Below are positions 7,174 through 61,811 of a stretch of 64,000 nucleotides of DNA, one piece after another. How positions within the stretch are numbered: the first letter of the stretch is position 1; each line of letters opens with the position of its first letter. Source of the DNA: Candidatus Falkowbacteria bacterium (lineage in GTDB: Bacteria; Patescibacteriota; Patescibacteriia; XYB2-FULL-38-15); NCBI GenBank assembly GCA_016214745.1, contig JACRNW010000006.1, positions 13,367 through 77,366 of the forward strand. Direction: 5' to 3'. The notes beneath the pieces were generated by a model. It searched no databases. It worked only from the letters and a program-made list of their open reading frames with translations, and was not told the origin of the DNA. A program made the translations under genes and the position numbers.

Positions 7174-8067
7174 ATGGCTACGGGAATTGAAGGAAGAATG
7201 GCCGCGGAGTTGGATCGCCGGCGGGTTTGGGGCTACACTGACGACGAAAATTTTAATCGGGAAATTGCTCAGCCGTGGAAGAGATCGGCGTTTGATCCGT
7301 ACGAGTTTATCGGCAAACCTTATCCGCGAGGGGAAGTGGAAGGAGATTTGAAAAAAATTGATGATATTAAAAAATCCCCGGATTTTAGGCATGAGCGGGG
7401 GAGCGAGACAGTCGCCCTGGAATATGTTTTGATGGATGGAATAAAAGTTCACGGTTGGTTTGGCGATGAAGTTGAATCAGTCCGGAAAACTTCAGAATAC
7501 GATGACGTAAAAAACGGAGTTGATTTTGTCGTAACTTTTTACGACGAAGAAAGCGGTCAGTTTGTTAATCTGGCCATTGACGCCACTACCGCCGTCGACC
7601 GTTTTGTTTTGGACAGGAAAAAAGAAAGAATTTTCAGAAAATTGGGATTTGGAGAAATGGCCAAAGTGAAATATTTTGAAGACCCGGACGGAAATCGGGG
7701 AAAAGTGGAAATGCCTTGCGTCGTTTTGGCTTTGGGACCCGAAAAAACTTTTGAACTTCAAAAAATGCTTGTTGCCGGATCGCGCGAGGAAAAATTTGCA
7801 CCGGAAATGTTTGATTTTTTGGATTCCGCGAGCGAGCAACTGTTTGGATTTATAAATTACACCTTGCATCGGCGCGGATTTTTGGCCCGCGAGAGAGAAC
7901 TTAAAAATTTGGGAGAGATAGCCGGGTTTATGGACCGGCATAGGGGAGATATTGATGAGCCGACGGAAAAAATTATTGACAGCCATTTTGCCGCGTTAAA
8001 AATTATTGGTATGGCCGCGGCGAGAAAGAGAATCGAGCGACAAATTACGCGGGAATCAATACATTAA
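7174..8067 (+). CDS. hypothetical protein
   Basis: 297-aa ORF with non-repetitive composition. No family recognised. Confidence 0.45.
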   Translation: MATGIEGRMAAELDRRRVWGYTDDENFNREIAQPWKRSAFDPYEFIGKPYPRGEVEGDLKKIDDIKKSPDFRHERGSETVALEYVLMDGIKVHGWFGDEVESVRKTSEYDDVKNGVDFVVTFYDEESGQFVNLAIDATTAVDRFVLDRKKERIFRKLGFGEMAKVKYFEDPDGNRGKVEMPCVVLALGPEKTFELQKMLVAGSREEKFAPEMFDFLDSASEQLFGFINYTLHRRGFLARERELKNLGEIAGFMDRHRGDIDEPTEKIIDSHFAALKIIGMAAARKRIERQITRESIH

Positions 8068-12337: not shown

Positions 12338-13234
12338 TTATATTTTAAAAATAACAACTCTATTTCTTCCCGCCAGGTCTTGTTTAATCTTTATTTTCGC
12401 GGCGGGAAAACGGCGCTTGATTAGTTTTGTGATAGATTTTTTTTGCGATGGGTCAATTTCGAAGAAACATGAAATATGAAACTTAAAACTTGAAACTTGA
12501 AAATTTTTGATTTGTTTTAGGAGTTGGCGGTAGTAATTGAGGCCGTCAGAACCGCCGTCCAGAGCTTGCTTCGGTTCATATTTTTTAATTTCCGGTTGAG
12601 TATGTCGCCACTGCGTGGTAGTGAGGTATGGCAAATTGGCAACGATTATTAAGTTGGAGTAGCGCCCGTAAGGGCGCGCTTGTGACGCAGCCTCACGGCT
12701 GCTATTCCGCGATGGAATAGTCATCAATGGCTCAAGCAAATTGCCGTGTAGCAAAGTAACGGCGACTTTATGATGAAGAATATTTTTTCGCGCTACTTTT
12801 AACGCCGCCGCCGAAATTTCTGTGGCGAAGATTTTTGCTTTGGGAAGATGGTGGGCGAGTGTTATGGCGATGGCGCCGCTTCCGGTTCCGACATCAATGA
12901 TTGCAGTTGGATTTTTATCTATTGCGGCTTCAACTAATGTTTCCGTTTCGGGGCGGGGGATTAGAACATTTTTATCAACAAAAAAATCCAGGCCGTAAAA
13001 ATATTTGTGGTCCGTGAGGTAGGCGATTGGTTCATGCCGTACTCGCCGAGCAATAAGTTTTTTAAATTTAGCCAGTTGTCCCGCGGCCAATTTTTTTTTA
13101 GGATGCGCGTACAAAAATTCTTTTGGTTTTTTTGTAACAAAAGCTAAAAGAATCTCTGCATCCAAGGCAGGGGAGGAAATTTTATTTTTTTGTAAAATTT
13201 TTATTGCCTCAATGAGCGATTGCTTGATAGTCAT
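12338..13234 (-). CDS. prmC: release factor glutamine methyltransferase PrmC/HemK, carrying a roughly 20-aa in-frame GC-rich insert
   Basis: DVGTGSGAIAITLA (SAM motif I) and IVANLPYL (NPPY-type motif). I place the start at MTIKQSL because the upstream in-frame codons lie inside the terminator hairpin of the neighbouring islet gene. The insert is MTIPSRNSSREAASQARPYGRYS, encoded by hairpin-forming GC-rich DNA at 12655-12728. Confidence 0.75.
   Translation of the reverse strand: MTIKQSLIEAIKILQKNKISSPALDAEILLAFVTKKPKEFLYAHPKKKLAAGQLAKFKKLIARRVRHEPIAYLTDHKYFYGLDFFVDKNVLIPRPETETLVEAAIDKNPTAIIDVGTGSGAIAITLAHHLPKAKIFATEISAAALKVARKNILHHKVAVTLLHGNLLEPLMTIPSRNSSREAASQARPYGRYSNLIIVANLPYLTTTQWRHTQPEIKKYEPKQALDGGSDGLNYYRQLLKQIKNFQVSSFKFHISCFFEIDPSQKKSITKLIKRRFPAAKIKIKQDLAGRNRVVIFKI
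12655..12728. repeat. In-frame GC-rich palindromic mini-insert inside prmC
   Basis: Hairpins agcgccc-gtaa-gggcgcg and ctattcc-gcgat-ggaatag lie between the conserved HemK motifs, where homologs have about 7 residues. Confidence 0.55.
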
Positions 13235-13316
13235 AGCGTTATTATAACATAAAAAAAGGCCTGAGCACTTGCGCACTCAGGCACCTCCTTGGAATTCGTT
13301 CCGCGGTGGGCTACGT

Positions 13317-13853
13317 TCAGGTGGGCTTGCCGGCGGTGGGCTCGACGACCTCCAGCTCCTCCTCGACGACCTCGGCTTCCGGAGCGTCAGCTTCTTCCGT
13401 GGCGGCTTTCGTGGCCTCCGCTCGGCTCTCGGTGACACAAGCGTCGAGCTCACGGTAGGGGAAAGCGTTGACGAGGTTGCTCCACGTGACGGGGTGACCG
13501 TCGGAGTCTTCCGTGTGGAGGAACTCCTCGAAAGCCGTCACAGTTTCATCGTGAGGGATTCGCTTGAACAGCTCGTCGACGAACAACTTGAAGTCCTTGG
13601 TGGCCGCCTCGAAGAGAGTCAGATTGTCCTCCACGCTTCCATGCCAGCCGGCGTAGAAGGGTCCGACGATCTTCGCGAAGCCGTGCAGTCCGACGAGACG
13701 CTTCAGGCCGGCGACGAAGCTCGGCTTCAGGCCCTCGCCGGGGATGGCCAGGATCTTGGCCACGATGTCCTCGACCCTCAGGAACCCCGTCAGGTAAGCC
13801 TTCTCCAGGCCGTCCGCAAGAAATACCTTCGCCATTTCCCGTCTGTCTTCCAT
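13317..13853 (-). CDS. GC-rich islet protein A (hypothetical, acidic C-terminal tail)
   Basis: MEDRREMAKVF... of about 178 aa. It has its own promoter (TTGACA-17-TAATGT at about 13918-13946, minus strand), an SD (gaaggaaaacc) before the ATG, and a hairpin plus T-run terminator (13259-13285, minus). GC content is far above that of neighbouring genes. Confidence 0.5.
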   Translation of the reverse strand: MEDRREMAKVFLADGLEKAYLTGFLRVEDIVAKILAIPGEGLKPSFVAGLKRLVGLHGFAKIVGPFYAGWHGSVEDNLTLFEAATKDFKLFVDELFKRIPHDETVTAFEEFLHTEDSDGHPVTWSNLVNAFPYRELDACVTESRAEATKAATEEADAPEAEVVEEELEVVEPTAGKPT

Positions 13854-13917
13854 GGTTTTCCTTCGCTTGCCTTTGCCCGCGACACGCGGGGAATTTTGGC
13901 AAGACCTTTCTACCCGC

Positions 13918-13946
13918 ACATTAGTTTAAAAAATTTTGTTTGTCAA
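13918..13946 (-). promoter_or_regulatory. sigma70-type promoter of islet gene A
   Basis: Minus-strand read cTTGACAaacaaaattttttaaacTAATGT: 17-nt spacer, placed about 60 nt upstream of the ATG. Confidence 0.45.
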
Positions 13947-14122
13947 GATAAAAAAAGAGCCCGCGGACTGCCGGGAGGGGGTGGGAGGTCTAAGACCTTT
14001 CCACGCGGCAGTACGCGGGCTTCGCGCCGGGGCTCTCCTGTGGTTTCGGGAGGGGCGCGAATTTGGACGGAGAACGAGCGGGTTAGGAACTCGCAGCTCT
14101 CACGTTGTTCGGGGGTGGACTA

Positions 14123-14335
14123 CTACTGGTCGGTGCCGTGAAGGCGGTATTCGCGCGCCTTCCGCCTGGCTCCTTCGGCTTGGCGGCGTTCCTCCTCGTC
14201 GTCGGGGATGAACCCGTCGGCGCGGCGATGATTCGGCCGACGCCTCTCGATCACGAACGGCCCTCCGTCCGGAATGATGCGAGATCCGTCGCGCGAGAGA
14301 GGCGTGCCATCGTGCATGAAAACTCCCTTTGACAT
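14123..14335 (-). CDS. small basic GC-rich protein (about 70 aa)
   Basis: The SD GAGGAGG lies 6 nt upstream of ATG: MSKGVFMHDGTPLSRDGSRIIPDGGPFVIERRRPNHRRADGFIPDDEEERRQAEGARRKAREYRLHGTDQ. Confidence 0.3.
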   Translation of the reverse strand: MSKGVFMHDGTPLSRDGSRIIPDGGPFVIERRRPNHRRADGFIPDDEEERRQAEGARRKAREYRLHGTDQ

Positions 14336-14500
14336 CCCTGTCCTCCTCAACCTTCCCTACGATCTCTATTGACAACTCGTCCCGTCCATCGGGCCGAGAT
14401 GTAGGGCCACCTTCCTTGCGTTTTGACGCGTGTCAACGGCGCAAAGCCACCCTGTTTGTTGATTTCATAATATTACAAAAAGATTAATTTGTCAACCCCC

Positions 14501-14529
14501 TTGACAAATTTTTTAATTATGATAGAGTA
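14501..14529 (+). promoter_or_regulatory. sigma70-type promoter (TTGACA, 16-nt spacer, TGaTAGAGT extended -10) overlapped by the inverted repeat ttgtcaa-ccccc-ttgacaa
   Basis: Read directly from the sequence. No protein-coding ORF follows it. Confidence 0.4.
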
Positions 14530-14534
14530 TTACG

Positions 14535-14855
14535 GCAAGGGTAATGGGGAGTCCTGTTCGGCTGATGCCAGCAGCGCACTGGCGTCATGGGTAATCTTTT
14601 TTCATCCCAAATCTAGAGCCCCTGGTTGGCGAACAGCGCGTTGATGCGCGGCCGACCTTGAGGCAAAGGACCCACGGGGTGGTCAGCAGGAACCCGGTCC
14701 GCGAGCTGCCCGTGAAGCAGACGTGGACTGAAATCTCCCCCGCGTTTTCGATCCTCCAAATCCGCTTTTAGCGGGTAAGGAGGTCACCCTTCTTTGCACA
14801 CCGCTACGTTTCGCGTTGTGCCTGTCGGTCGAACACCTGTTCGGCCGACTCTTTT
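14535..14855 (+). ncRNA. Candidate structured GC-rich non-coding RNA of about 320 nt (identity unknown)
   Basis: A promoter at 14501-14529, no ORF longer than 10 codons, and a strong terminator at 14818-14855 (gtcggtcgaacacctgttcggccgac + tctttttt). About 60% GC in an AT-rich genome. I could not match tmRNA, RNase P or SRP signatures by eye. Confidence 0.3.
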
Positions 14856-14880
14856 TTATATCAAAATTTATATCAAAAAA

Positions 14881-15083
14881 CCGGCCTTGCGGCCAGTCAA
14901 TTTTCCCCTCTTAAGGTAAGAGGGGCTGGGCCTGCCCGCAACGCCAGCAACCTGCCCGCTAATGCAAGCATAGCGTTGCAGGCGGGGCTGGCTTGCGTGG
15001 CGGGCGGGGGCGTTATGAGCGGCGATTTTAAAATCCACGGTTCATAACGCCACCCAACCCCCCCTTATCTTAAGGGGAGGGGT
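14881..15083. repeat. GC-rich composite element G1, copy X (flanked by ccccttaagg-type mini-hairpins)
   Basis: The roughly 130-bp core (cccctcttaaggtaagaggggctgggcctgcccgcaacgccagcaacctgcccgctaatgcaagcatagcgttgcaggcggggctggcttgcgtggcgggcgggggcgttatga...) is nearly identical to the reverse complement of 33070-33200. The last hairpin encodes the prfA C-terminus and stop. Confidence 0.8.
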
Positions 15084-16122
15084 TCATTGTTTCTTTTTTC
15101 AACACTTCAATGATCGGGTCAAGTTCGCCATCCATCACGTTATTTATACTATGCCAACTTTCTTTAACGCGGTGATCGGAAACGCGGTCTTGAGGAAAAT
15201 TATAAGTTCTGATTTTTTCCGCGCGCATGGCCGAACCGATCTGCGAACGTCGCGCCGCGACTTCCGCCGCCTGGCGTTTTTCCTGCTCCATTACAAAAAG
15301 TCGGGCGCGCAAAACTTGCATGGCTTTTTCCCGATTTTGCTGCTGGGAACGTTCGTCTTGGCAGGCGACAACAAGGCCCGACGGAATATGAGTAATACGC
15401 ACGGCGGAATATGTCGTTTGCACGCTCTGCCCGCCATGGCCGCCGGATAAAAATGTATCAACGCGCAAATCTTTTGGTTCAATTTTAATATCAATTTCTT
15501 CAGCTTCAGGAAGGACGGCGACGGAAGCGGTTGAAGTATGAACCCGGCCGCTTTTTTCCGTTTCCGGAACGCGCTGAACGCGATGCACGCCGCTTTCAAA
15601 TTTTAAATTTCCCCAAGCACCTTTTCCGATAACAGAAAAAATAATTTCTTTAAAACCTCCAAGGTCAGTGCGGTTGGCCGAGATCAATCTTGTCTGCCAG
15701 CCCTTGCGCTCGGCAAAGCGCGAGTACATTCGGAAAAGTTCGGCGGCAAAAATTGCGGCTTCATCGCCGCCGGCGCCAGCCCGGATTTCCACAATAATAT
15801 TTCTTTTGTCCAACGGATCTTTCGGCGTCAGTTCTTCTTTGATTTCCGCTTCAAGCGCCGACTTTTCTTGCCTAATTTTTTCCAATTCTTCTTTGGCAAT
15901 GACAGCCAATTCGGGAATGTCTTGCGCAGCAACGGTTTCCGTGTCAGTTTCTTCCTTTTCCAGTTTATGAAATTTATTTATTTTTTCCATTACTTCTTTT
16001 AAGTCGCTGTATTCCCGCGAAACGGTTTTCAGTTTTTCCGGATTAGAAACCACCTCGGGGCGGGCGAGTTCGGCCTCGAGTTCGGCAAAACGTTTTTCAG
16101 CTTTAGCGATTTCAGGAATCAT
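15070..16122 (-). CDS. prfA: peptide chain release factor 1
   Basis: 350 aa with GGQ ([12 protein letters not shown]) and the RF1-type PxT-like tripeptide ([14 protein letters not shown]). Confidence 0.9.
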
Positions 16123-32365: not shown

Positions 32366-32869
32366 ATGAGCGACGAGTTCAGGATGACGACGGGACAGGC
32401 GCATGAGTTGGCGATGGCCTTCGGTCGCAACGGCTGGACCAACGCCGACGTGAAGAAGATGTCTGAGGGCGATCTGCTCGCCCGACTGCTACCGGTCATC
32501 CGGGGGCAGGCCGACGTGAAGAAGCCGGAAATCCCGACCGAGATGACCGTCGGCGGCCGCGTCTACGAGATCCTCTCCTTCCTCCGGGAGGAGGACAACG
32601 GATTCGTCCGCGGCGACGTGATGGTCTCCCGGGCGAAGGAGCTCGGCGCCAACCTCGGCAAGGAGGACTGCGAGTTCCTCCTCACCCACCAGGACGAGAT
32701 TCCGCCCGCGTTGCGGGGCAAAGTCGTCTTCGTCTTCCCGGACTTGCGGCGCCCGGGCGACCGCGAGCACGTCGCGTACCTCCACTGGGACGACGGCGGC
32801 TGGTACCGGCACTGGTACTGGCTCTCGGACGACTGGGACGGCTACGATCGTCTCCTTCGCCGCAAGTAG
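32366..32869 (+). CDS. GC-rich islet protein D (hypothetical, W/D-rich C-terminus)
   Basis: SD gaaggag before the ATG. 167 aa with high GC3. Shares a weak DCEF/FEEF-L-x-T motif with islet proteins A and C. Confidence 0.45.
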   Translation: MSDEFRMTTGQAHELAMAFGRNGWTNADVKKMSEGDLLARLLPVIRGQADVKKPEIPTEMTVGGRVYEILSFLREEDNGFVRGDVMVSRAKELGANLGKEDCEFLLTHQDEIPPALRGKVVFVFPDLRRPGDREHVAYLHWDDGGWYRHWYWLSDDWDGYDRLLRRK

Positions 32870-46619: not shown

Positions 46620-46946
46620 ATGGGTGGTCTTTCTCCAAAACAGGTTGGGAAGATTCTGAAGCGGAGATTCCCCGAGATGAATCGTCACACTCGTCAGGCG
46701 ATGGAAATTATCTTCAGCCATCTCGTTAACCGGCTGCCGCTTGTTCATCTTCCGTCAGATCTTGATTATCTGGCGCTTGTGGATCCGTCGCTTACCACAA
46801 GATGCCTCATTTGCCTCGTCTGCGGGGATCTGCGGGCCGGCGGCAATGCCCCGATTTACATTAAGGTGGAACCGATTATGGGGCAGGTAGGAGGAGACGG
46901 GGGCTGGCTTCAGATTGTTTCCCGGGAATGGCGGAGAGGGGGGTAG
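46620..46946 (+). CDS. GC-rich islet protein F (hypothetical)
   Basis: SD aaaggagg before the ATG. GC-rich 108-aa ORF bracketed by terminators at 46538-46568 and 46949-46981. Confidence 0.35.
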   Translation: MGGLSPKQVGKILKRRFPEMNRHTRQAMEIIFSHLVNRLPLVHLPSDLDYLALVDPSLTTRCLICLVCGDLRAGGNAPIYIKVEPIMGQVGGDGGWLQIVSREWRRGG

Positions 46947-47237: not shown

Positions 47238-48680
47238 ATGGCACTTAGAGATTTTGGGGCGGACGAAGCTTTAGAAAAATATGGGAAAGAAAAAGGGACG
47301 GCCGAAAAGTCCGGCGAAGGCTGGACGGCGGATAGAAAGGAATTTGAAGCGGTCCGCAAAGAAAAAAAATTAAGAAAACCGGGGTCTGTTTCTAGATTTT
47401 TTAATCAATTTGGCATTGGAAAATATTGGGAGCGCCTGAATGATTATTTTGAGCAGGAAGAAAGAATGGAAAAGGAAGAGGCCGAAAGGGCGGCGGCCAA
47501 GGAAACAGCGGGGGATGTGAAAGCCGCGGCTGAGGAGAAAGTCGGCGCCATAAAAGCGGAAGGAACGGAAATGCCGAAAAAAATTGAAGCAAGCGCGGCG
47601 CGTGCCGGAGCCGAAGCGGCAGAAGCGGCGCCAATTGTTGCTGAAGCAAAAGCTGAAGAGACGCAAATTGAGCAAGAAGCAGAGGCGGCAAGGGCTGATT
47701 TGGGTGAAGAAGTAGAGATTCTTGAGCAAAGACCCCTAATGGATGAAGTCAAAGAAAAATATGAGAAAAAATATAAAGACACTCCGTTGCGGGAAATTGA
47801 CGTAAGGATTAAATATATTGAGCATCAGATGAAGGCGCAGGATAATCGCCATGATGAGATAGAGGAAGGTTTAAAAAGCGGTAAGCTTTTTAAATCGGAT
47901 GAGTTACGGGCCGAGCAGAAACAAATGGAAGAAAAGCGCGAGTGGTTTGAAACTGAACGGAAGATATTGCTCGAAATTAAAAAAGAAAAAACGCCAGCTA
48001 AGGCTGAAGTGAAAAAAATAAAAGCGGAAGAATCGCTCGCGTGGGAAGAGGCGGAAGAACCAGCCGTTGCCAAAGAAGCTAAAGAAGGGGCAGTGCCTTC
48101 GCCCGCGGAAGTAAAATCAGCTGAAGTTTTGTCTGAAGAAATAATTGAGCCGGCGGAAGAAGAAATGGAAAAAGCTAAGGTTAAACCAGTATCTTTGAAA
48201 AAGAAAAAAATCCAAGCCGGTCCGCCGTCAATTAAGGAGATAAAGCCAGTTGAAGTTTTAGGTGAGGAAGTTATTGGAGCTGAATCACTGACTCTATGGG
48301 ACGAAGTAGAACCGGCAACAATTTCCGTGACAGAAAGAAAAAAAATTGAAACTGGGCGATGGGAACCGAAAATTTCTGCCGAATTTAAGGCTCATGAACC
48401 TAAACTTTTTAGCGAAATGGAAAAGGCATTTTTTGCTAAAGGAGAAAAGGGAAGTAAGGCGCGGCTGGAGCGCATGTTGAGTTCTTTAGAAAAAGTTGGC
48501 GAGGCTTATGCAAAACAAAAGACAGAAAAAGAAATTTCCGCGGCCGACCTGAAGGCGTTAAAGAAATGGATCGCCGAGACGAAGGCGGCAATAAATGTAT
48601 TGCAACGGGCTCCAGAAGAAATGAAGCCGGTAAAAGTTGTGGAGTTGAAGAAAAAGAAGAAAGCGGGAAGAGCGGCCTAG
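47238..48680 (+). CDS. E/K/A-rich low-complexity coiled-coil protein
   Basis: 480 aa with strongly biased composition. Several antisense ORFs in the track are artefacts of this bias. Confidence 0.45.
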   Translation: MALRDFGADEALEKYGKEKGTAEKSGEGWTADRKEFEAVRKEKKLRKPGSVSRFFNQFGIGKYWERLNDYFEQEERMEKEEAERAAAKETAGDVKAAAEEKVGAIKAEGTEMPKKIEASAARAGAEAAEAAPIVAEAKAEETQIEQEAEAARADLGEEVEILEQRPLMDEVKEKYEKKYKDTPLREIDVRIKYIEHQMKAQDNRHDEIEEGLKSGKLFKSDELRAEQKQMEEKREWFETERKILLEIKKEKTPAKAEVKKIKAEESLAWEEAEEPAVAKEAKEGAVPSPAEVKSAEVLSEEIIEPAEEEMEKAKVKPVSLKKKKIQAGPPSIKEIKPVEVLGEEVIGAESLTLWDEVEPATISVTERKKIETGRWEPKISAEFKAHEPKLFSEMEKAFFAKGEKGSKARLERMLSSLEKVGEAYAKQKTEKEISAADLKALKKWIAETKAAINVLQRAPEEMKPVKVVELKKKKKAGRAA

Positions 48681-48740
48681 GGTCTTGCCAAAATTTTAAA
48701 TTTGTGCTATTATTGAATATTAATAAATTAACTTTTTAAT

Positions 48741-49145
48741 ATGTTTAGAGAAGGTGAAGTTCCGCCGGAAGTCGCGGCGGAATATGAAAAAATGGAAGGA
48801 AAAAATATGGAACCAAAACATGAAGCAGCTGCTGCAGTGGAAAGAGAAACTGATGTTGGCAGTTTACAAGCCGGAGTATTAAGCCCAGAAGATTTTGTGA
48901 AGTCGGTTTTAGCCCGCGAAGGCGGAGATCCGAGGAGAGCGGTAATGGCCACCCACAGCATAAAAGAATTTTGGATTAAACAACTTGATGAAGGAAATAT
49001 CACGCCCCAAGAATTTAGTGATGGCGTTTATAACGCCGCGGTCAAAATGCTGAAAGAGAGAAAGGGTCCGACAGAGAAAGAGAAAGCCAGAGAAGAGGCG
49101 CAGAAGGCAAGGCTTGAAAATATTCGGGGAAGACGAGCGGCTTAA
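48741..49145 (+). CDS. hypothetical protein
   Basis: 134-aa ORF followed by a bidirectional terminator at 49160-49200 (agcatcctcggaaagcggggatgct + tttgttttt). Confidence 0.4.
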   Translation: MFREGEVPPEVAAEYEKMEGKNMEPKHEAAAAVERETDVGSLQAGVLSPEDFVKSVLAREGGDPRRAVMATHSIKEFWIKQLDEGNITPQEFSDGVYNAAVKMLKERKGPTEKEKAREEAQKARLENIRGRRAA

Positions 49146-49223
49146 ATTTAAAAGAAAAAAAGAAGCATCCTCGGAAAGCGGGGATGCTTTTGTTTTTGCC
49201 TCCTTTCTTTGCTGGTCTCGACC

Positions 49224-49691
49224 TCATCGAGACAGCCTGACCATGCGAAGCAGCTTGGTGAAGGCGCCGCGGCAGTAAGCCTCTGCGCCGCCGTTTTCGA
49301 CAGGCGTGCCCTCGAGCAGTGTTTCGAACCCTTCGTACAGATCGTGCCGGAAGGTGTTCAGGGCGTGCGTGATTTCCCGCATTACTCGGGCACGGGCGTC
49401 GCGATTGCTCCATTCGCGAGTGGCCCGTTCGTAGGTTTCGCGGCTGATTACGGGCAGCGAATTTCCGGCCCGCATTCGTTCGACCGTCTCCAGAATCACC
49501 CAGAGGTAGTAGAGGAAGGCGAGATTTTCCCAAGTCTCGCCGGGATTCGCTCCGAAGATCTCGGCCAGACCATCCCGCACTTCTTCGAGCCAGTCGGCCG
49601 TAGCCGATTCGTCCGCTCGCAGGTCAACGATCAAACCGTTGAATTGGTCCCGGACAGAATTCCGACGCTTTTTGGCGTGTGTATCTTCCAT
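49224..49691 (-). CDS. GC-rich islet protein B (hypothetical; possible paralog of A and C)
   Basis: Promoter TTGACA-17-TAAGGT (49719-49747, minus) and SD aaaggagg. C-terminal LLRMVRL parallels ILRMIQL of protein C. Confidence 0.45.
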   Translation of the reverse strand: MEDTHAKKRRNSVRDQFNGLIVDLRADESATADWLEEVRDGLAEIFGANPGETWENLAFLYYLWVILETVERMRAGNSLPVISRETYERATREWSNRDARARVMREITHALNTFRHDLYEGFETLLEGTPVENGGAEAYCRGAFTKLLRMVRLSR

Positions 49692-49718
49692 CGTGTCCTC
49701 CTTTCCGAATGGACTCTA

Positions 49719-49747
49719 AACCTTAAATCATTTTTTCTTTTTTGTCA
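49719..49747 (-). promoter_or_regulatory. sigma70-type promoter of islet gene B
   Basis: Minus-strand read cTTGACAaaaaagaaaaaatgattTAAGGT. Confidence 0.45.
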
Positions 49748-49843
49748 AGGGTAAATATTTCTCGTTATCTACGCTCATTCGTTAATAAAATAAAAAAAGA
49801 GGCTAACCTTACCGGCGCCTCTTATTTCTTCCCCCCATCTTCT

Positions 49844-50305
49844 TCAGTCGGCTGCTCGCAGCTCCTTGCTTCGTGCGCGTTCAAGCTGGATCATTCTCAG
49901 GATTACGGCGAAGATGTGTTCAACCAGCCTTCTGACGTGAAGCGACGCGATTGACTCGTTGAGTGTCGGTCTGAACTCACAATCGATGGTCTCGCGAAAC
50001 TGGTCGAAACTTTCATCATCAAGTGCGTTGTTCGGAACTTCACCGAGTCCACGCCATGCCTCGCCGGACGAATTAGAGGAGATTCGCGGCAGTTGATGGT
50101 CCAGCAATTTCTCGACGCTTTGCAGGCCTTTGAACATCACCGACATCGCCTTCAGGAAGTCGGAAGAAGCCAACTCAGAACCCCGAGCTCTTGCCCTGTT
50201 GAAGGCTTTCGCGATTTCGGGGTTGCTTTCCTGGAAGTCCTGGAATTTCTGGAAGGCAAAATTGTGCGGTTCTGCCCTTTCGGACGATTCCTCCTTGTTT
50301 CCCAT
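49844..50305 (-). CDS. GC-rich islet protein C (hypothetical; possible paralog of A and B)
   Basis: Promoter TTGACA-17-TAAAGT (50330-50358, minus) and SD aaaggagg, with the same architecture as gene B. Confidence 0.45.
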   Translation of the reverse strand: MGNKEESSERAEPHNFAFQKFQDFQESNPEIAKAFNRARARGSELASSDFLKAMSVMFKGLQSVEKLLDHQLPRISSNSSGEAWRGLGEVPNNALDDESFDQFRETIDCEFRPTLNESIASLHVRRLVEHIFAVILRMIQLERARSKELRAAD

Positions 50306-50329
50306 ACTGCCCCTCCTTTTCGACTTTTA

Positions 50330-50358
50330 ACTTTAAGATACCATTTCGTTTTTGTCAA
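50330..50358 (-). promoter_or_regulatory. sigma70-type promoter of islet gene C
   Basis: Minus-strand read tTTGACAaaaacgaaatggtatctTAAAGT. The layout is conserved with the gene B promoter. Confidence 0.45.
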
Positions 50359-50414
50359 ACACGATTTTGTGATATGATTGCTAAATAGTTTGTTAAAAAA
50401 TTAACTAAAAGATT

Positions 50415-55541: not shown

Positions 55542-55916
55542 CTACTCGGTCGCGATCATCTGGAACGAGAGTGGTTCTCCGCACTCGCTGCAGTGGAAGC
55601 GCTTGGTCGTTGGCTTGCCAAAGTTCTTGCAGGTAGCCCGTGAACAGGTGCCGATGAGGGCTGGAGTGCCCCGCGTGACCGTGAAGGGCACTTCGGTGAT
55701 CTTGAGTTCCCAGCCCTGCGGCAGAACTTCCCGAAGTTTTTCGGCATTCTTCCTGGCCGTGGCGTCGGAAGAAACTTGGCCGTCCGGCAGATCAGTGAAG
55801 AGAAATCGTCCAGAGCCGACCGGCACCTTGAGATCCGGCGCCTTCGGGTCGTCGCTTGGCCGATAGATTGTAATGTGGTACAGCTTGGGCGTTCCCGGCT
55901 GTGTTGATTCTCCCAT
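55542..55916 (-). CDS. GC-rich islet protein E with a C-terminal zinc-ribbon-like motif
   Basis: TCSRATCKNF...FHCSECGEPL (two Cys pairs). SD ggaaagggagg. Long hairpin terminator at 55470-55530. Confidence 0.45.
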   Translation of the reverse strand: MGESTQPGTPKLYHITIYRPSDDPKAPDLKVPVGSGRFLFTDLPDGQVSSDATARKNAEKLREVLPQGWELKITEVPFTVTRGTPALIGTCSRATCKNFGKPTTKRFHCSECGEPLSFQMIATE

Positions 55917-56039
55917 GATTTACCTCCCTTTCCCTCGCTTCATCTTGGCATTTTGGTTTGATTTTGTCAAGAGATATGGCGCGATAAAGAAAATTTTAGT
56001 ATAATTGATATTAGGGGAAGTAATTTTTAACCTAAATTT

Positions 56040-60983: not shown

Positions 60984-61177
60984 GGAATTTGTTTTGTGGA
61001 TAAAATTAGCTTGACAGGTTTTTCTGGGTATTGTAGTATAAATTAATTGACAAGCGAATGAGAGAAATGAATTTATTCATTTCCGAGTGAGCGCAGTCAA
61101 TATAGGGTAAAACCCTCTATTACCAAAGACAGCAGGCGTTTGCCCTAAAAGGCGACTCAATTTCCTGCCGAGGTAAA

Positions 61178-61286
61178 CTAGTTGATCAGTTAAATAGTTA
61201 ATTGGTTAAATAGTTATTGTCTCGTGGTAATTGCCACGATTTTTTGTATCCCGATTAACTAATCAACTGATTAACCAATTAACTGA
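61178..61286. repeat. Palindromic intergenic element family P2, copy 3
   Basis: agttgatcagttaaatagttaattggttaaatagtta...ttaactaatcaactgattaaccaattaactga. Confidence 0.7.
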
Positions 61287-61291
61287 CATAT

Positions 61292-61811
61292 ATGCCTAAA
61301 ACTAAAGAACAAAAGAAACAAACTCTCGCGGAACTTGAAGATAATTTCAAGAAAAGCAAAACGGCGGTTTTTGTTAATTTCCAGGGTTTGAATGTTAAAG
61401 ACACGACTGCCCTTCGTAATCTCTTGCGTAAAGAAAAAATTGAATATGAGGTGGCGAAAAAAACACTTTTGAAACTTGCCGTGGAGAAAATCGGCCAAGC
61501 TGGCGTTGATCCAAAAAGTTTTAATGGTAATATTGCCGTGGCCTTTGGCTTTGAGGATGAAGTGACGCCGGCTAAAGTGTTGAATCACGACCCACGATGC
61601 TTTAAAAATTATCGGCGGAACGCTTGAAAAGAAATTTATTGACGCCGCTAAAGTTATTGAGCTGGCGCAGATTCCTGGCAGACAGGAACTCTTGGCGAAA
61701 TTAGTTGGCAGTATCAATTCGCCGGTTTCCGGTTTTGTAAACGTCTTGGCCGGAAACTTGCGTGGTTTGGTTCAGGTGTTAAAAGCGATTTCAGAAAAAA
61801 AACCAGTTTAA
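61292..61811 (+). pseudogene. rplJ: 50S ribosomal protein L10 with an apparent +1 frameshift near 61586
   Basis: Frame 1 gives residues 1-98 (...EDEVTPAKVLN) and then reads HDPRCFKNYRRNA*. Skipping c61586 continues as TTHDALKIIGGTLEKKFIDAAKVIELAQIPGRQELLAKLVGSINSPVSGFVNVLAGNLRGLVQVLKAISEKKPV to the stop at 61809-61811, which is the expected L10 C-terminal half. Confidence 0.6.

Follow-up and report, generated by a model that had tools for sequence, protein, structure and literature searches.

Phage morons of the Hendrix type are cassettes with a single small open reading frame (ORF), their own promoter and terminator, a deviant base composition, and an unknown or accessory function. The two genes described here, B and C (HZB93_01930 and HZB93_01935), share these properties. 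They lie side by side in a 64,000-nucleotide (nt) stretch of Candidatus Falkowbacteria, a member of the candidate phyla radiation (CPR; Patescibacteria). This stretch, positions 13,367 to 77,366 of contig JACRNW010000006.1, is called the window below. Both genes are annotated at NCBI as hypothetical proteins of this organism. Unlike morons, they are chromosomal without a prophage, occupy the same site in all relatives without presence/absence polymorphism, and have no flanking phage genes and no relatives in viral collections. A narrow range, fast evolution, and the exchange of divergent alleles between near-identical backbones also link them to the ORFans of hypervariable or flexible regions. 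However, flexible islands are usually AT-richer and transient, whereas B and C are never lost or replaced by unrelated cargo and are stably GC-rich in an AT-rich genome. With the immunity arrays of polymorphic toxins and bacteriocins they have in common that they are small, paralogous, strain-variable, and, as predicted, helical, and that an SdpI-family membrane protein adjoins them, but a toxin gene, a secretion-system context, and a match to any immunity family are all lacking. Finally, STAB-SD elements are 5' mRNA stabilisers of the Shine-Dalgarno (SD) type in Firmicutes. The B and C units resemble these in having a perfect AAAGGAGG near the predicted 5' end, at most ~20-25 nt away from it, and a strong hairpin at the 3' end, and differ in that their SD sequence also serves as the ribosome-binding site and in that an extra SD-like element follows the stop codon. 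As outlined below, B and C are real, separately transcribed protein-coding genes, and they are full-length distant paralogs that go back to an ancient tandem duplication in which the complete expression unit was copied. We think it rather likely that the duplicated units belong to a narrow orphan family, inherited vertically at a fixed site, with mosaic alleles and an actively held GC-richness, that selection would act on their mRNA, and that the proteins would serve in binding.

A first-pass annotation of the window, made by a model from the sequence, gave coordinates for both ORFs that were correct according to our sequence and ORF check. It also described near-identical promoter and SD modules in front of the two genes, and this held for TTGACAAAAA, the 17-nt spacer, TAAGGT or TAAAGT, AAAGGAGG, and the ATG, but not for the proposed distance of about 25 nt between the -10 hexamer and the SD sequence, which is 15 nt for B and 9 nt for C. 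Overall, the annotation was partly confirmed, since the ORFs, promoters, SD sequences, and a shift in GC content stood, while the -10-to-SD distance and motif matches in two other genes of the window, A and D, did not. The features of the locus are as follows, GC being the G+C fraction of the gene and GC3 that of its third codon positions.

49224 to 49691, minus strand: gene B (HZB93_01930), 155 amino acids (aa), predicted all-alpha, isoelectric point (pI) 5.5, GC 0.59, GC3 0.69; 17 family members
49844 to 50305, minus strand: gene C (HZB93_01935), 153 aa, predicted all-alpha, pI 5.6, GC 0.53, GC3 0.63; 22 family members
50353 to 50358, minus strand: -35 hexamer TTGACA of gene C, extended to TTGACAAAAA; unchanged in all 13 upstream regions of B and C that were aligned
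50330 to 50335, minus strand: -10 hexamer TAAAGT of gene C, after a 17-nt spacer; TAA.(G)TT is kept in all relatives
50312 to 50319, minus strand: SD sequence AAAGGAGG of gene C, 6 nt before the ATG
49791 to 49823, minus strand: intrinsic terminator of gene C, with AAGAGGC, a 13-nt loop, GCCTCTT, and a T-run; kept in relatives
49743 to 49748, minus strand: -35 hexamer TTGACA of gene B, extended to TTGACAAAAA; invariant in the same 13 upstream regions
49720 to 49725, minus strand: -10 hexamer TAAGGT of gene B, after a 17-nt spacer; from the upstream alignment
49697 to 49704, minus strand: SD sequence AAAGGAGG of gene B, 5 nt before the ATG, preceded by the conserved leader TTAGAGTCCATTCGG
49199 to 49206, minus strand: SD-like AAAGGAGG between the stop codon and the terminator of gene B, without a start codon behind it
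49155 to 49189, minus strand: intrinsic terminator of gene B; bidirectional, common to B and the convergent 134-aa gene
48741 to 49145, plus strand: g134, the convergent 134-aa gene, which belongs to the same hypervariable segment as B and was replaced along with it between the related loci L004 and L008; not GC3-rich (0.37)

The promoter and leader modules of B and C are homologous and conserved in all relatives. In 13 aligned B- and C-type upstream regions from these relatives, TTGACA, the 17-nt spacing, TAA..TT, AAGGA.G, and the ATG are invariant, and the leader TTAGAGTCCATTCGG of gene B is kept even at loci as distant as L011 and L012. In the 64 kilobases, the exact pattern TTGACAAAAA-N13-TAARGT is found at two sites, upstream of B and of C only. 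When up to two mismatches were allowed, there were three matches versus 0.35 expected, the third preceding gene A, which is one of four further GC-rich islet genes of the window (A, D, E, and F). No direct repeat of the region is longer than that of the promoter modules (37 nt, 73% identical, 610 nt apart), and the terminator tails form a second one (637 nt apart), indicating that whole promoter-to-terminator units are repeated in tandem with a period of ~610-640 nt. An additional element of these units is an SD-like GGAGG or AAGGAGG, located 5-40 nt past the stop codon, directly before the terminator hairpin and without a start codon. GGAGG within 45 nt after the stop was present at five of seven B loci, five of seven C loci, and both A loci, which adds up to 12 of 16 loci versus ~0.02 expected per site. 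Gene A of the window carries the element at 13270-13290 (minus strand), and it is absent after D, E, and F. We know of no described counterpart for an SD-like element after a stop codon.

Substitutions between close orthologs of either gene show a coding pattern, being most frequent at the third and least frequent at the second codon position, with a ratio of nonsynonymous to synonymous divergence (dN/dS) of 0.13-0.35, and the SD sequence, ATG, and stop codon of the units are kept across relatives. A word-indexed search found 12 homologs of B with 48-100% identity, to which an exhaustive search added three further distant clusters, and 22 homologs of C were recovered with a profile. An antisense ORF of 181 aa over B is interrupted in L001, L008, and L009, indicating that it is a by-product of codon bias. 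AlphaFold2 returned all-alpha models with a predicted local distance difference test (pLDDT) score of 84.5 for C and 71.7 for B, and the proteins are predicted to be soluble helical bundles of ~150 aa. They are mildly acidic (family pI 4.7-6.8), prefer Arg over Lys, and their invariant residues belong mainly to the hydrophobic core; no catalytic-looking motif was seen in the family alignments. Searches of PDB sequence profiles, Pfam (with all 39 family members), PHROGs, PADLOC, and BFVD gave no consistent match and nothing for the candidate roles listed in the first-pass annotation (effector, immunity, anti-defence, or symbiosis), and neither protein could be placed in a Pfam, NCBI-named, PHROG, or PADLOC family or in a solved fold. 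In view of the small size, the variability, and the lack of catalytic features, our guess is that B and C are strongly expressed, strain-variable protein-interaction modules and not enzymes.

The paralogy of B and C, which the first-pass annotation had proposed, becomes visible only with family profiles. BLASTP with single sequences found no similarity between the two proteins (E 0.54), and hhalign with shallow profiles gave a probability of only 6-21%. When the distant B members from the exhaustive search were added, comparison of the two families reached a probability of 96.2% (E 2.6e-9, score 60, 130 columns). These distant members were required for the detection by hhalign, and BLASTP alone would wrongly reject paralogy. 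The controls were clean, with scores of 13.5 for reversed, 12.9±2.5 (maximum 21) for column-shuffled, and 21.5±4.4 (maximum 42) for block-shuffled (10-column) profiles. In a HMMER search of 2,235 stop-to-stop segments from the window and the related loci, the next-best match of each profile after its own family was the other family (E 3e-5 to ~0.8, mostly ≤0.03), and no ORF of the window besides B and C was found at E<1. The hhalign alignment has ~19% identity and five conserved blocks, which read F..(L/F)...(L/Y)...NP, (D)FL...(W/M)..L...V, LP.IS...(A)..(E)W, FR..(L/I)...F...L, and, at the C-terminus, F..(L/I)LRM(I/V).(L/I). The last block aligns the C-terminal LLRMVRL and ILRMIQL that had been noticed before as shared motifs; the second shared motif, around FR-x2-[LI]-x3-F, also lies in an aligned region, but its proposed register was off by three residues. 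In the AlphaFold2 models of B and C, the helices appear in the same order around the conserved LP.IS loop. The duplication carries host-type AT-rich promoters and is far older than the separation of the sampled lineages.

The first-pass annotation raised the question whether homologs lie at variable positions, which is not the case: the C-B pair was found at one syntenic site in every relative recovered. In all of L001 to L010, the SdpI/DUF1648 membrane protein (with DUF5661) is followed by C, B, g134, a Glu/Lys-rich protein of ~500 aa, a 60-aa gene, a 108-aa gene, and YceG. As far as their short contigs reach, the same order was seen in L011 and L012, where B shares only ~30% identity with that of the window. 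The shared site indicates that the pair is vertically inherited and is not a mobile islet. The B/C family is restricted to a narrow Falkowbacteria/Parcubacteria clade, with only seven clusters of the B family at 50% identity among 1.84 billion representatives. No relatives were found in IMG/VR, INPHARED, PLSDB, or BFVD, none of the 1.84 billion representatives is a homolog in a GC-rich context, and at the locus itself we found no mobility genes, no tRNA genes, and no identifiable donor. Of the usual marks of a genomic island, B and C thus show the atypical composition, and lack a patchy distribution, mobility genes, border tRNA genes or repeats, and a donor. The two copies of a 17-nt direct repeat on either side of the locus, at 48901 and 50741, fall within coding genes, each in another frame, and are not conserved in relatives, indicating that the repeat arose by chance. 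The nearby block with an extracytoplasmic function (ECF) sigma factor, FecR, and DUF5661 is missing in L007, where C and B are in place, and therefore has no functional link to the pair.

Some neighbouring sequences are variable as well. Homologs of g134 are 131-148 aa long and 42-75% identical between relatives. In the window, g134 and the adjoining Glu/Lys/Ala-rich protein of ~480 aa (together 47238-49145, plus strand) are both hypervariable, with normal GC3 and no Pfam domain, and the homologous segment of L004 (6546-8381) contains length-variable repeats at 7229-7700. In the distant L012 (419-1340), the C-type gene is split over three frames, as a pseudogene or through an assembly error, and ~400 nt with CCCCGCAC/GTGCGGGG inverted repeats, which could be a small mobile insertion, separate C from B.

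The alleles at this site are mosaic. L004 and L008 have near-identical backbones (99% aa identity for YceG, and a synonymous divergence, dS, of 0.11-0.12 for YceG and DUF5661), and their C genes differ by a dS of 0.23, but B is only 46% identical (dS 1.41) and g134 only 47% (dS 1.56); DNA identity falls from ~90% to ~55% between L004 positions 5800 and 6930, with sharp edges. When the window is compared with L001, it is B that follows the backbone (83% aa identity, dS 0.46), whereas C is 45% identical (dS 1.6), and the C allele of the window belongs to a rare class together with P0014 and P0015. These contrasts indicate that divergent alleles of C, B, and g134 have been exchanged independently by recombination. 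Rapid divergence had been proposed for a family spread over four islets; it was found for B and C, whose dN is 3-5 times that of their neighbours, with dN/dS of 0.13-0.35 versus 0.03-0.17. B and C are under relaxed constraint, and the elevated dS together with a dN/dS below 0.4 points to import of alleles and not to positive selection in situ.

The shift in base composition is real. The window has a GC content of 42.8%, and the GC3 of 38 background genes is 0.438±0.048, with a maximum of 0.55. B and C, with GC of 0.59 and 0.53 and GC3 of 0.69 and 0.63, are 4-5 standard deviations above this background, and the six GC-rich ORFs of the window, A to F, range from 0.63 to 0.92. The islet genes use TTC in 88% of cases versus 17% in the genome, ATC in 92% versus 18%, CTG plus CTC in 76% versus 22%, and AAG in 50-90% versus 17%. 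Since rplL and rplJ have a GC3 of 0.47 and 0.38, this is not the codon usage of highly expressed genes. The same shift was present in the homologs of all lineages (GC3 0.61-0.81 for B and 0.47-0.70 for C), and was weakest in L009, the relative with the lowest GC content, while nearly all other genes at these loci have a GC3 of 0.30-0.47. The exceptions, at 0.53-0.62, are an E-like ORF in L007, a 108/109-aa gene in L007 and L009, and one 69-aa ORF in L007. The synonymous sites of the flanking genes are saturated between most lineages (dS 1.0-1.5), and the GC3 of B and C is still high. The composition steps coincide with the borders of the two ORFs, the intergenic parts are AT-rich, and g134, which recombines together with B, has a GC3 at background level across loci (0.33-0.40). 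We infer that the alien composition of B and C is not a fresh import and that a gene-specific force holds it against the AT pressure of the genome. Literature searches on GC-rich islands in CPR bacteria or Parcubacteria returned nothing relevant. The 108-aa gene upstream of the 60-aa and ~480-aa genes (46620-46946, plus strand; L007 8948-9277, GC3 0.62; L009 8880-9206, GC3 0.53) is moderately GC-rich in relatives and may show this compositional shift in a weaker form.

In the reading that we favour, the ancient tandem duplication copied a unit in which a sigma-70-type promoter close to consensus is followed by a short leader with its strong SD sequence, the ORF, and an intrinsic terminator. 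The pair has been passed on vertically at one site beside the SdpI-like gene, in a segment prone to recombination, in which divergent alleles of C, B, and g134 are swapped independently between near-identical backbones. The force on composition would be selection, on the nucleic acid or the mRNA, for a message that is long-lived and strongly expressed, with which the GC-rich body, the SD sequence near the 5' end, the SD-like element after the stop, and the strong terminator would fit. We favour this kind of selection because the composition changes stepwise where the ORFs end and a high GC3 is lacking in g134, which recombines along with them, and because a near-consensus promoter, a perfect SD sequence near the 5' end, and a strong terminator are combined with a conserved post-stop GGAGG. 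The proteins would be strain-variable binding modules, perhaps in immunity, anti-defence, or interaction with a partner cell.

Several observations weigh against parts of this reading. The reference for highly expressed genes consists of only two ribosomal-protein genes. The GC contents of first and second codon positions (GC1 and GC2) are also raised, which resembles a general compositional pressure more than purely synonymous selection. Polarised third-position changes in B run mostly from GC to AT (13:1, 19:7, and 31:2), although these counts come from parsimony with saturated outgroups and are biased in this direction in a GC-rich gene; such an excess is what AT-biased mutation against an opposing force should produce, and would also fit the slow decay of a foreign composition. 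Folding of the whole mRNA gives weak z-scores, -2.3 for B and -0.6 for C. Lastly, the independent swaps of B and C alleles argue against a tightly co-evolving, specific pair.

Among the alternatives, the one to be taken most seriously, although we would bet against it, is that the GC-richness was not selected and came about through GC-biased gene conversion at a hot spot of recombination. The locus is demonstrably mosaic and recombining, GC3 is shifted most with GC1 and GC2 following, and a recent input of GC-to-AT changes combined with GC-richness over deep time is what a counter-force from conversion predicts. However, g134 lies in the same replaced segment and keeps its background GC3, the intergenic parts stay AT-rich with steps at the ORF ends, and this codon usage is also found at other sites, in the unrelated islet genes A, D, E, and F.

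It is unlikely that B and C are moron-like cassettes that were acquired horizontally from a GC-rich donor, phage, or plasmid and have not yet ameliorated. Such an origin would fit the alien use of TTC, ATC, and CTG plus CTC, the shift of all three codon positions as in a genome of ~60% GC, the promoter and terminator of each gene, the mostly GC-to-AT direction of recent third-position changes, and the weakest shift being found in L009. But the genes stand at the same site in every relative, even where B is ~30% identical, and GC3 is high where the dS of the flanks exceeds 1 and is saturated. The duplication that separates B from C at ~19% identity has host-type promoters, the viral and plasmid collections named above hold no relatives, the locus lacks mobility genes, tRNA genes, and meaningful flanking repeats, and the representatives searched include no homolog from a GC-rich context.

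The third alternative, a toxin/antitoxin or toxin/immunity pair or an array of immunity genes against polymorphic toxins, seems to us distinctly improbable. B and C are small, fast-evolving, tandem paralogs with a predicted all-alpha fold, their alleles are exchanged between strains, and their neighbour belongs to the SdpI immunity-protein family. On the other hand, Pfam and PADLOC revealed no toxin domain nearby, the two genes are homologous and form separate transcription units, unlike a bicistronic toxin-antidote operon, and their alleles are replaced independently.

The first-pass annotation had placed A, B, C, and D in one rapidly diverging family spread over at least four islets. That these genes, with further islets, form a single superfamily scattered through the genome is very improbable. 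All six islet genes share the alien codon usage, the TTGACAAA -35 box is common to A, B, C, and E, the post-stop GGAGG is common to A, B, and C, and in relatives A and D are fast-evolving or multi-copy too. However, when A, D, E, and F were compared as single sequences, with A re-started at the ATG behind its SD sequence (13317-13853), the B and C profiles gave hhalign scores of 9-15, which equals the null (12.9±2.5 for shuffled profiles), HMMER found nothing, and all pairwise BLASTP comparisons had E values of at least 0.39. The motif matches that had been proposed in A (AFEEFLHTED) and D (EDCEFLL) are thus chance, and, without detectable similarity of A, D, E, and F to B or C, the four-islet family is not supported. 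Judging by a reading of the sequences, the four proteins also seem to differ in composition from the helical B and C, in that aromatics and Gly abound in the C-terminal half of D, the Cys4 motif of E resembles a zinc ribbon, and F is a short protein with much Arg.

Some features of these islet genes can be recorded in their own right. Gene A (minus strand) probably starts at ATG 13853, behind an SD sequence, and not at the GTG listed at 13919, so that its range is 13317-13853; its promoter, TTGACAAACA, is at 13937-13946. The protein encoded by its relative in L016 (4874-5425) is only 28% identical, while the promoter, a structured 5' untranslated region (UTR) of ~60 nt, and the 3' GAATTCCAAGGAGGT with terminator are nearly identical. 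The expression signals of A are thus conserved around a hypervariable ORF. ORF F (14123-14335, minus strand) encodes an Arg-rich protein of 70 aa (pI 9.7, GC3 0.75), and has the SD sequence GAGGAGG, a long 3'UTR, and a strong TTGACA-17-TATTAT promoter ~120 nt upstream; it is poorly conserved in L016. Gene D (32366-32869, plus strand) has the most extreme composition, with a GC3 of 0.92. Its relatives in metagenome-assembled genomes of other Parcubacteria (SURF_54 and ARS52) are 58-61% identical and are GC-rich islets in DNA of 33-40% GC. Dispersed D-type copies in L014 (3848-4363 and 7008-7487) have a common two-hairpin leader, one of them behind a TTGACAAAAA promoter, and a tandem pair in L015 (3869-4360 and 4479-5021) includes one copy with the two-hairpin leader. 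D is therefore a second family, unrelated to B and C, that shows duplication of the expression unit. Gene E (55542-55916, minus strand) encodes 124 aa (GC3 0.70), with a TTGACAAAAT box at 55961-55970 and a C-terminal Cys4 pattern (C-x4-C ... C-x2-C) that resembles a zinc ribbon, and a 175-aa relative stands at the same site in L007.

It is hardly credible that B and C are spurious ORFs and that their GC-rich stretches represent structured non-coding RNAs (ncRNAs). In favour of this, islands of high GC between the genes of AT-rich genomes often turn out to be RNAs, the locus contains long antisense ORFs, and the B mRNA folds slightly better than shuffled sequences (z -2.3). Against it, the substitutions at B and C are coding with a dN/dS well below 1, the SD sequence, ATG, and stop are conserved, the AlphaFold2 models are confident, the antisense ORF is broken in three relatives, and Rfam gave no match in the whole window at the curated gathering threshold (a scan with a permissive E-value covered only 13200-15200, with the B-C locus outside this range).

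A candidate for a structured ncRNA was found elsewhere in the window. The prfA-prmC pair is split by ~1.8 kilobases of GC-rich DNA (13280-15070, 52-64% GC) that hold a hairpin-rich stretch, the candidate ncRNA, ORF F, and gene A. The candidate (14545-14860, plus strand) is a GC-rich sequence of ~310 nt without a credible ORF. Its promoter, TTGACA followed after 16 nt by TAGAGT, is back-to-back with the promoter of ORF F, and its terminator is of the canonical type, with GTCGGTCGAAC..GTTCGGCCGAC and a T-run. The minimum free energy is -140 kcal/mol (z -4.2 on the plus and -2.6 on the minus strand), and the sequence is 71-89% identical to the same position in L016, conserved like prfA. Comparison with Rfam gave no family, only a terminator-like match to SorY (E 0.07). 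The GC-rich, hairpin-rich stretch directly after prfA (14884-15056) is specific to the window and absent in L016. In addition, the region 61105-61717 contains an L10 leader (RF00557, 47.7 bits) and, behind it, an rplJ ORF that has an odd C-terminus and spans just 111 aa, pointing to a frameshift in the L10 gene or to an error in its assembly.

The GC-rich islet pattern recurs in unrelated islet genes of the window and of other Parcubacteria. It is tempting, though quite speculative, to see B/C, A, D, E, and F as unrelated members of an undescribed class in Parcubacteria and the CPR: autonomously expressed small-protein genes with a consensus TTGACA promoter, a strong SD sequence, often an SD-like element after the stop, a terminator, and GC-rich, foreign-looking codons that would be actively maintained through long periods of evolution as a functional device. 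This device may serve, for example, the longevity of the mRNA or a special expression regime in ultra-small cells, and the proteins would diversify by duplication and allele exchange and mediate strain-specific interactions with hosts, phages, or competitors. CPR bacteria are rich in genes that resist annotation, and B and C mark a recognisable subset of these, small, separately transcribed, outlying in composition, fast-evolving, and exchanging alleles, for which a compositional island does not equal a recent transfer. If slow amelioration or gene conversion is all that lies behind the composition, the pair is another orphan family. If GC-rich coding is instead a selected device for expression or stability, it would constitute a new kind of gene-specific codon regime, and would make the interaction factors of uncultivated episymbionts recognisable by a simple signature in the genome.

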